From the UHGV virus genome UHGV-0288843: a stretch of DNA of 34,774 nucleotides. One strand, 5' to 3'. The notes under the pieces were generated by a model. That model did no database searches. It had not been told where the DNA came from and saw only the letters and a list, made by a program, of their open reading frames with translations. The stretch is from a virus. A program made the translations under genes and the position numbers. This document shows, one piece after another, positions 12,928 through 34,344 of the stretch. Positions within the stretch are counted from its first letter, which is position 1, and each line of letters opens with the position of its first letter.

Positions 12928-12973
12928 CCACTTTTAGGAACTGTCCTACTGGATATTTCCATTTAGCGCAAAC

Positions 12974-13012
12974 AAAAAAACCTCGTTCCCTAGAAGAGAG
13001 CGAGGTTTTTTA
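12974..13012. terminator. Intrinsic terminator after int (AAACCTCG...CGAGGTTTTTT). The A-run upstream also allows function in the opposite direction
   Basis: 8-bp stem with flanking A7 and T6 runs. Confidence 0.5.
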
Positions 13013-13086
13013 TGGACCATACAGGACTCGAACCTGTGACCGAACGGTTATGAGCCGTTTGCTCTAACCAACTGAGCTAATGGTCC
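13013..13086 (-). tRNA. tRNA with anticodon CAT (Met elongator or Ile2-lysidine type). CCA not encoded
   Basis: Clean cloverleaf: acceptor GGACCAT/ATGGTCC, D arm GCTC-AGTTGGTTA-GAGC, anticodon stem AACGG/CCGTT with loop CTCATAA, T arm ACAGG-TTCGAGT-CCTGT. Confidence 0.8.
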
Positions 13087-13117
13087 TGAAAAAATACCTC
13101 TTAAATAATAAGAGGTA
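13087..13117 (-). terminator. Intrinsic terminator for the minus-strand moron operon (TACCTCTTA aataa TAAGAGGTA, then U-run)
   Basis: 9-bp perfect stem followed by TTTTTTCA on the minus strand. Confidence 0.55.
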
Positions 13118-13128
13118 TTAATAAATTA

Positions 13129-13518
13129 CTATTTGCATTTATGAGACTTATGTTTTGGATCAATCCTGTATATCACTAAATACCCGTCTTCATTATAATA
13201 ACCAAATACCCTAAATGGATTTTGGTCTTTGCCATAATGATAAACTTCTCTTTTGATCCCATTAATTTCAACTTCTTCATAATTACTTCCTCGGCCTTTT
13301 GTCCGCAAAAATAATTTATCGACCTCTGTAATTGATAAATTTTTTCCTGCTGTTTCAGCTATAAATTTATCTAATTCTTTCAAAGAACCTTTATCCATTT
13401 TTTTGAAGCAGTATTTATTGTCCAAACACTCTTGAATACAAAATCGAAATTTCATTGATTTTCTATCTAAAAAAGAACCATTTTCTACAACTACATCTCT
13501 TGTTAATTTCTTCGCCAA
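13129..13518 (-). CDS. candidate toxin partnered with the Panacea-domain antitoxin (129 aa, TTG start). The C-terminal beta-rich motif FRVFGYYNEDGYLVIYRIDPKH is loosely RelE/HigB-like
   Basis: Begins 3 nt after the upstream stop, with GGTGA 7 nt upstream of the TTG. Size and position are typical of a type II toxin. Family assignment is tentative. Confidence 0.45.
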   Translation of the reverse strand: MAKKLTRDVVVENGSFLDRKSMKFRFCIQECLDNKYCFKKMDKGSLKELDKFIAETAGKNLSITEVDKLFLRTKGRGSNYEEVEINGIKREVYHYGKDQNPFRVFGYYNEDGYLVIYRIDPKHKSHKCK

Positions 13519-13521
13519 CTA

Positions 13522-13977
13522 TTAGTCACCTACATACACACTTTTATAATAATTAGCCATGTCTTCTGTAGATATTTTTTCCCTACAACTATCTCCTTCT
13601 GAAACTCCAGCTCTTAATCTTGCTTGTTTCCAAGGTAATTCTGTATGAGTCAATGCTTCAAGCTCATTTGCTGACTTATCACCATAAGTAATCCAAACTG
13701 ATTCTAGAACATCCACAGTTTGATTATCTATTGCAGCAGGTGAAGTACATTTAGGAATAGAATTCCATTTATATTCTCTATATTTATTATACAATTCTGG
13801 AGAAACAGGTCCATGCGCCCAAGCCTGAAATTCAGAATCATCTATTATGCTGTCATCTAAAAGTGCATTGTTCCACGCTTGTGCATAGTAACAAAGTTTT
13901 TGTAACTTTTTAGGAGTCATTGACTCTTTATTCAAAAACCAATCAGCTATTTCAAAAATACTATATTTTTTATTCAT
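13522..13977 (-). CDS. Panacea-domain (DUF4065 / GepA / SocA-like) phage-associated protein, i.e. a PanA-type antitoxin
   Basis: TPKKLQKLCYYAQAWNNALLDDSIIDDSEFQAWAHGPVSPELYNKY matches the conserved DUF4065 core (KLQKLlYYAQ ... AW.hGPV ...lY). Strong ribosome-binding site, AGGAGGGG. Confidence 0.6.
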   Translation of the reverse strand: MNKKYSIFEIADWFLNKESMTPKKLQKLCYYAQAWNNALLDDSIIDDSEFQAWAHGPVSPELYNKYREYKWNSIPKCTSPAAIDNQTVDVLESVWITYGDKSANELEALTHTELPWKQARLRAGVSEGDSCREKISTEDMANYYKSVYVGD

Positions 13978-14156
13978 ACTAGCCCCTCCTTAACACTTAT
14001 AATATAACATTTAGCTACATTATATGCAATAAAAATATAGCATACACCCCTTTGGAAAACGGCATTAAAACAAGTTTAAGAAGTTTTTTTCACTTACAAA
14101 CACGCAAATATGCCTAATCATAAGCTGGTTATCATATTTGTTAAGTTTAATTAAAT

Positions 14157-14189
14157 AACAAAAAAAGAGCCACCTTAGAAAGGCGACTC
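14157..14189 (-). terminator. Intrinsic terminator after the endolysin gene
   Basis: GAGTCGCC ttagaaa GGTGGCTC, followed by TTTTTTTGTT on the minus strand. Confidence 0.5.
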
Positions 14190-14248
14190 AAGAGAAATTT
14201 AATAAGTGTATTATTATTTTACACTACCTATAAATATTTTACTATACT

Positions 14249-33634: not shown

Positions 33635-33806
33635 TAAAGATTTATATTAGACTGCCTAGCCAATCTAACACTTATTTAACAATACTAGGTTGCTAGCCAC
33701 TTTATCCTGTTTCCGCAGGCTGGCTAATTCTGAAAGGAGGTGAACCGATCGTTAAAGTAAGAAACATTTATTGACGATTTTTTTATTTAAGTAGCTATGC
33801 TACCTA

Positions 33807-33879
33807 TTGGCGTGACAGGATTCGAACCCGCATCTTATCTCACACGAAGTAAGTTGCATTACCACAATGCTACACGCCA
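33807..33879 (-). ncRNA. tRNA-like element with perfect acceptor stem (TGGCGTG/CACGCCA), D arm (GCAT-TGTGGTA-ATGC) and T arm (T-loop TTCGAAT), but an aberrant anticodon arm (4-bp stem, 12-nt loop)
   Basis: Folded by hand. No canonical anticodon loop could be placed. Confidence 0.35.
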
Positions 33880-34344
33880 AACCAGAAGGAGCGACCTTCT
33901 AGCAATTGCTAATAAATCAAATTAACCTTTACACACTCTCGTCAGAATGTTTTCCCTTCAGGACGTAGCTTTCGCAGACTTTCACGGCTAAAATGATTAT
34001 GTCACTGGCAAGGATTTGCACCTTGTATGGTCTATATTCCACCACAGTGACCAATCAATCAAACACCAGCAAAAACAATTGATTAAGTTTATCCTAAACG
34101 TACCTAGCTGCTACTCTATGAGTTTAGGAATTGCTCTCGTGCATAAGCAGCTGCCGCAGAGATCTGGTTAATGTTCTTATCGTCATATGATGGGATAGAG
34201 CAATATACCTAACCTCGACTAGTATGAATCAGGTAGTTACTACTGCATCCCTAGCAACTATTTGTGTCCCTTGCAAACCTGTAGAAAAAAGAGGAGGTTA
34301 TTCACCTCACTTCATTTTATTGAGAACGTAAGTCTGCAAGTGAC

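Follow-up and report, generated by a model that had tools for sequence, protein, structure and literature searches.

The viral genome UHGV-0288843, analysed here over its full length of 34,774 nucleotides (nt) and called the window below, is that of a mosaic Enterococcus faecalis temperate siphophage partly akin to EFC-1 and the phiFL phages; no deposited phage genome closely represents it. Between its lysis genes and its integrase, two adjacent genes on the minus strand encode an acidic Panacea-domain protein of 151 amino acids (aa), the putative antitoxin PanA, and a basic protein of 129 aa, the candidate toxin PanT. Both open reading frames (ORFs) lie where a first-pass annotation of the window had placed them, and the motifs quoted there are present. 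The pair is an uncharacterised member of the already predicted, unvalidated PanAT class of toxin-antitoxin (TA) loci and not a new system. The two genes and the sites read as their Shine-Dalgarno sequences are as follows.

13522..13977, minus strand: panA, 151 aa, ATG start, putative antitoxin; ORF with a match to Pfam PF13274
13129..13518, minus strand: panT candidate, 129 aa, TTG start, basic, MAG6450 family, placed by sequence in PanT cluster T1, predicted RelE-like fold
13985..13991, minus strand: AAGGAGG, panA Shine-Dalgarno sequence, 7 nt 5' of the ATG; read from the sequence
13526..13531, minus strand: AGGTGA, plausible panT Shine-Dalgarno sequence, 7 nt 5' of the TTG; read from the sequence

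panA and panT share a reading frame and have only TAA TAG between them (junction at 13516-13531, minus strand). The AGGTGA motif coincides with the final Gly-Asp codons of panA (GGTGAC), which encode a conserved C-terminal Gly-Asp, and offers a plausible Shine-Dalgarno sequence for coupled translation of panT. A GGTGA/GGAGA-stop-start arrangement is also present in two of the relatives introduced below (loci L041 and L013), and the panA-panT gap ranges from -50 to +3 nt in related loci, with one exception at +100. This agrees with the coupling proposed in the first-pass annotation, in which the TTG stands 3 nt after the antitoxin stop and its ribosome-binding site lies inside panA.

The assignment of the 151-aa protein to the Panacea (DUF4065) proteins is confirmed by its match to Pfam PF13274 SocA_Panacea, whose cutoff of 25.7 bits it exceeds with 69.6 bits (E = 5.5e-19; profile positions 1-113 on residues 25-117), and in PHROGs it matches phrog_1281 (4.8e-40). 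As PanA carries no extra N-terminal domain, it is a standalone Panacea protein; its isoelectric point (pI) is 5.0, and exact look-up finds its sequence on about 508 contigs. It shares the SocA_Panacea domain with SocAB of Caulobacter, the type VI TA system in which Panacea/DUF4065 was founded, but it remains below the cutoff of the SocA equivalog model (NCBIfam NF047745, 41.1 bits vs 190), and its partner is not SocB. SocA acts as a ClpXP adaptor through which its own toxin is degraded, unlike direct sequestration (Kurata et al. 2022, PMC8832971). In Paenibacillus phage C7Cdelta (L040, 1414-1953), as in related phages of P. larvae, a PanA gene is placed between the endolysin, which it directly follows, and the integrase. 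The C7Cdelta protein is 44% identical to PanA of the window, with no downstream toxin ORF; such solitary copies could be remnants or, alternatively, counter-defence proteins against host PanT toxins.

The 129-aa protein is a clear case of the MAG6450 family: it scores 133 bits with the NCBIfam model NF046006, whose curated cutoff is 40 (E = 5.2e-39), and the alignment spans all 103 positions of the model. Its exact sequence occurs on about 497 contigs and is named MAG6450 family protein in NCBI and UniRef. A profile search run exhaustively over 1.84 billion representative proteins returned only 139 representative clusters, 23 of them at E <= 1e-30. The family is real but small. MAG6450 itself is a conserved hypothetical protein of Mycoplasma agalactiae, and in the literature it appears only under that description in transposon-insertion tables, without functional information. 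Pfam, PHROGs and PADLOC give no credible match for the 129-aa protein. DUF5868, DUF4367 and DUF4309 were rejected as its identity, being sub-threshold noise, and sequence and profile matches to PDB chains of an anti-CRISPR protein (E 0.07) and of BCCIP (E 0.5) are at chance level. The N-terminal KLT motif is conserved in the family, which makes the TTG further upstream a likelier start than the internal Met22. With a mass of about 15 kDa and a pI of 9.3 (family median 9.7), the protein is opposite in charge to PanA, as in classical TA pairs.

To place the pair among its relatives, one genome per species and the IMG/VR contigs were scanned, yielding 36 loci, to which Streptococcus phage Javan59 was added; one related locus ends at a contig edge, leaving its upstream side unreadable. 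A PanA homologue of about 150 aa lies directly 5' of the toxin gene in 36/36 readable loci, the window counted, and these homologues match PanA of the window at phmmer E values of 1e-37 to 1e-107. Among the hosts are Enterococcus, Streptococcus, Haemophilus, Granulicatella, Lacticaseibacillus, Loigolactobacillus, Lactiplantibacillus and Furfurilactobacillus. Homologous pairs at 40-75% protein identity are found in at least seven genera, and both ORFs are therefore real genes. Pairwise identities of PanA and toxin are correlated (Pearson r = 0.81). The loci show the features by which Kurata et al. 2022 define a locus, namely two genes, a gap of at most 100 nt and occurrence in at least two species. 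The gene next upstream of the pair codes for an endolysin, of GH25 or Amidase_2 type, at 13 of the 22 distinct loci, so that a position after the lysis genes is typical for the cassette.

In the Javan59 pair, PanA is 56% and the toxin 54% identical to the window proteins. The Javan59 toxin is a 124-aa ORF with a GTG start (L002, MK448817.1, 4004-4378) that is unannotated in GenBank, where the PanA gene is annotated merely as "hypothetical protein". An apparent natural PanA-PanT fusion (P0188, 284 aa; L041, Logan contig SRR22859380_102750, 183-1037) was dismissed as a gene-calling artefact, because a TAG stop between the two genes had been taken as sense by the gene caller.

The relation to published systems follows from the survey in which PanA and PanT were defined, comprising 1,268 predicted pairs and 88 toxin clusters (Kurata et al. 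2022, PNAS, PMC8832971). Among the cluster T1 entries of its Dataset S1 is a pair from Granulicatella balaenopterae, WP_089746062.1 and WP_089746061.1, whose genes are 1 nt apart. Exact look-up identifies these two proteins as PanA and toxin of locus L013. WP_089746061.1 is 41% identical to the window toxin and matches the same family hidden Markov model (2.8e-49). A pair from M. agalactiae 5632 is also listed in T1 (PMC8832971), in agreement with the NCBIfam name MAG6450. By sequence comparison, the window toxin family is a subfamily of the published, computationally predicted PanAT class T1, with which the window shares a standalone Panacea gene first and a toxin-like gene abutting it; the E. 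faecalis prophage copy of the window differs in not being among the listed or tested pairs. The first-pass view that the toxin cannot readily be placed in a named family, and that the pair may be new, is therefore not supported, given the NF046006 match and the Granulicatella homologue already listed in T1. An accession look-up in the NetFlax supplement did not find the family.

All three tested T1 members carry the label "mRNase" as predicted mode of action in Table S1 of the same study (PMC8832971). The basis of this label could not be traced in Dataset S1, where the words RelE, HigB, interferase and ribonuclease do not turn up until later clusters. The validated ribonuclease (RNase)-type PanTs are MazF/PemK-like and not RelE-like. 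One of the tested T1 proteins, from Salmonella phage Emek (L039, 1877-2362), has only a remote similarity to the MAG6450 family, reaching an hhalign probability of 19% to its profile, and in that 19%-probability alignment it apparently lacks equivalents of R103 and H123. Judged by such comparisons, cluster T1 looks heterogeneous.

We then examined the fold of the 129-aa protein. AlphaFold2 modelled it with a predicted local distance difference test score (pLDDT) of 74 from a shallow alignment, and with a pLDDT of 85.8 and a predicted template modelling score (pTM) of 0.75 from an alignment of 116 sequences. The predicted topology, a strand and two helices followed by a four-stranded antiparallel sheet, corresponds to the beta-alpha-alpha order and antiparallel sheet of RelE, YoeB, HigB and YafQ, and in both searches every ParE chain ranks below the chains of these four toxins. 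On this evidence, consistent though modest, the 129-aa protein probably has a RelE-like fold. The likeness extends to the gene order, with a small basic protein encoded after a translationally coupled acidic partner, and a conserved inner-strand Arg together with His residues after the last strand is reminiscent of YoeB, HigB and YafQ. Unlike RelE-type toxins, the 129-aa protein is about 35-40 residues longer at its N-terminus, where it carries the KLT motif, and its antitoxin is a globular Panacea domain and not of the RelB, YefM or HigA type. Foldseek against PDB gave nothing at E <= 0.001 and S. pneumoniae HigB only at E about 1. The loose RelE/ParE resemblance noted in the first-pass annotation is echoed in the AlphaFold2 topology, while no match comes from Foldseek, Pfam, the PDB profile search or hhalign; as these four give no support, membership of the RelE/ParE superfamily is held to be unproven.

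Conservation in the family is concentrated in a few polar residues. All of 118 diverse full-length members have H94; R103, D120 and H123 are kept in 99% each, R72 in 93% and H126 in 82%. R72, H94, R103, D120 and H123 lie on or just after strands of the predicted sheet and constitute a candidate catalytic set, as judged from the alignment.

The surroundings of the pair delimit a compact cassette, with the following further features.

14160..14189 (folded 14167-14189), minus strand: endolysin terminator, 10-base-pair (bp) hairpin followed by U7; backbone feature and upstream border of the insert
14117..14144, minus strand: promoter-like site TTAACA-16 nt-TATGAT, from a consensus scan, 10/12 matches
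13087..13119 (folded 13093-13119), minus strand: intrinsic terminator of the cassette, 11-bp hairpin followed by U6, 1-2 nt from tRNA-Met
13013..13086, minus strand: tRNA-Met (CAT), found by ARAGORN; adjoins the cassette and is not part of the TA pair

The leader of the cassette measures 189 nt and contains the sigma-70-like site. The first-pass claim of an own promoter region holds as far as the presence of this site is concerned; the region holds no more sites of this kind than shuffling would predict, and 14117-14144 is a consensus match only. A structure in the 5' untranslated region that would sequester the panA start (inverted repeat 13961-13978 / 14023-14040) was discarded, the fold of the leader being non-significant against shuffled sequences (z -1.6). 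The two bracketing terminators claimed earlier are both genuine hairpins with U-runs, and the one on the endolysin side belongs to the phage backbone. Compared with shuffled sequences in RNA folding, the hairpin after the endolysin (14167-14189) has -14.0 kcal/mol and z -5.2 and was also reported by a pattern scan for terminators; the hairpin after the 129-aa ORF (13093-13119), with -13.3 kcal/mol and z -3.7, was not reported by that scan. A third hairpin, likewise with a U-run, follows tRNA-Met at about 12970-13010 (-18 kcal/mol, z -4.1).

Upstream of the pair lie a holin (PF05105) and the Amidase_2 endolysin. On the other flank the opposite strand encodes a large serine recombinase, in which Pfam recognises Resolvase, Recombinase and Zn_ribbon_recom domains. 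Between it and the pair is the tRNA-Met gene, which the first-pass annotation does not mention. For this tRNA with anticodon CAT, Met is the label given by ARAGORN; hairpin terminators flank it on both sides, and the gene directly follows a terminator. A second tRNA gene of the window, tRNA-Arg (TCG), is found at 33806-33880 on the minus strand, near the far end.

Comparison with other phages reveals how the pair is inserted. In Enterococcus phage EFC-1 an identical endolysin terminator hairpin abuts tRNA-Met directly and there is no cassette, while the window has about 1.07 kb between the endolysin terminator and tRNA-Met, at roughly 13089-14160, taken up by the leader, both genes and a terminator. 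Because EFC-1 joins the two elements directly, the pair is a genuine inserted cassette, and since the endolysin terminator is present there without the pair, it belongs to the backbone and not to the cassette. tRNA-Met itself is common to the phiFL phages, EFC-1, IME197 and AE4_2. Three IMG/VR contigs (L018, L020 and L022) share with the window only the block 13006-14221, at 98.5% identity. This 1.2-kb block consists of terminator, pair and tRNA. The endolysin of these contigs is a GH25-LysM protein of about 434 aa, and their recombinases also differ from that of the window. As the block is shared despite different lysins and integrases, the cassette moves between phage backbones. The earlier placement at a junction of lysis genes, attP and integrase is thus retained as a self-contained insertion between lysis genes and integrase; attP was not located. 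In EFC-1 (L001) the same inter-module region holds a TIR-domain protein between tRNA-Met and the integrase (1846-2688), which suggests that the lysis/integrase junction is a slot or hotspot for defence-type cargo.

Like the morons of temperate phages, the cassette sits between backbone genes, brings a promoter-like region and a terminator of its own, and recurs in different phage backbones; it differs from defence morons in that no defence phenotype is known for it. Owing to its own promoter-like leader and its terminator, it may be expressible from the prophage at a time when the late genes are shut off.

By analogy with characterised Panacea pairs, we propose that the locus is a PanAT module of type II-like action carried as prophage cargo, in which PanA would sequester a RelE-fold RNase, PanT; we put the probability of this reading at about 60%. 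Standalone Panacea domains neutralise their toxins by direct contact (Ernits et al. 2023, PMC10440598), and PanA would likewise bind PanT directly and keep it inactive. If PanA were lost, titrated or triggered, PanT would act as an endoribonuclease and shut down translation, most likely on the ribosome, with the near-invariant R72, H94, R103, D120 and H123 forming the active site. Such a module may serve in abortive infection or exclusion of other phages, in stabilisation of the prophage, or in both.

A number of results weigh against this proposal. At the level of the fold, none of 116 family members matches a RelE/ParE-type Pfam family at E <= 1, a PDB profile search with the family profile was negative, and between that profile and E. 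coli RelE (a sequence identical to PDB 4v7k chain y) hhalign gave a probability of 0.2% and no alignment. PADLOC-DB v2 has no family for either protein at E <= 1. In Mycoplasma sp. HU2014 (L016, read with genetic code 4) a toxin homologue at 517-930 has no PanA upstream. The experimental record of T1, a thin one, points in the same direction: the C. cadaveris toxin, which is toxic in E. coli and may or may not be of the MAG6450 subfamily, is not neutralised by its own PanA, the members from E. coli MOD1 and Salmonella phage Emek are non-toxic, and no T1 pair passed the toxicity-neutralisation assay (PMC8832971). Downstream of the Mycoplasma homologue, at 999-1928, a 310-aa protein carries a Fic motif (HPFIDGNGRTGR), and a transposase-like ORF lies upstream.

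In the main alternative explanation, the pair would be something other than a classical TA system that arrests growth, and the MAG6450 protein would be non-toxic or conditional, for example a nuclease effector or regulator dependent on a phage cue, with PanA mainly as its sensor or partner. It would account for the behaviour in E. coli of the tested T1 members, two of three being non-toxic and the toxic one unrescued by PanA (PMC8832971), and it fits the proposal that Panacea may act primarily as a sensor (Ernits et al. 2023, PMC10440598). The solitary PanA genes after the endolysin in Paenibacillus phages and the Mycoplasma homologue without PanA are likewise consistent with it. The conserved antitoxin-first, overlapping layout is, however, a classical signature of type II systems, as are the opposite charges of PanA and PanT, and the non-toxic Emek protein is remote and seemingly devoid of two of the invariant residues. 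On balance we consider this explanation unlikely. A bolder proposal, to which we give a tentative minority chance, sets the MAG6450 subfamily of T1 apart as a clade of its own, made up of uncharacterised RelE-fold nucleases that share an invariant His/Arg/Asp/His set and are obligately coupled to a standalone Panacea domain; in Enterococcus and Streptococcus prophages it would provide lysogen-expressed abortive infection, Panacea sensing a protein of the superinfecting phage and releasing the nuclease.

The remaining two alternatives concern the nature of the 129-aa protein. Its RelE-like fold would also suit a ParE-like gyrase poison neutralised by PanA. ParE proteins are not known to carry RelE-type catalytic residues, and the MAG6450 family keeps its enzyme-like invariant His, Arg, Asp and His. 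As this His/Arg/Asp/His set is enzyme-like and the RelE, YoeB, HigB and YafQ chains outrank every ParE chain, we favour an RNase over a gyrase poison; the mRNase label of the tested T1 members (Kurata et al. 2022, PMC8832971) also argues against ParE, which we therefore regard as improbable. That the 129-aa ORF is a chance or mis-called frame behind a solitary PanA could be argued from its TTG start, from the missing GenBank annotation of the Javan59 homologue and from the lack of a Pfam or PHROG match. This is refuted by cross-genus homologues with strong motifs in the 139 representative clusters, 23 of them at E <= 1e-30, a curated NCBIfam model, a confident AlphaFold model and a conserved Shine-Dalgarno sequence before the start.

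Panacea antitoxins pair with dozens of unrelated toxins. T1 is the first class in the table of Kurata et al. and apparently the largest, none of its pairs has been validated, and its toxin is without a published fold or active site. To this class our analysis adds a candidate catalytic set open to mutagenesis, evidence for strict co-inheritance of PanA and toxin, and evidence that the pair travels among E. faecalis phage backbones as a cassette of 1.1-1.2 kb, usually to a site just after the endolysin. The exact pair is present on about 500 E. faecalis contigs, so any part it had in excluding phages or keeping the prophage stable would matter for enterococcal phage therapy. If true, the reading of PanA as a Panacea sensor that releases a nuclease would for the first time assign a mechanism and a biological role to PanAT class T1.

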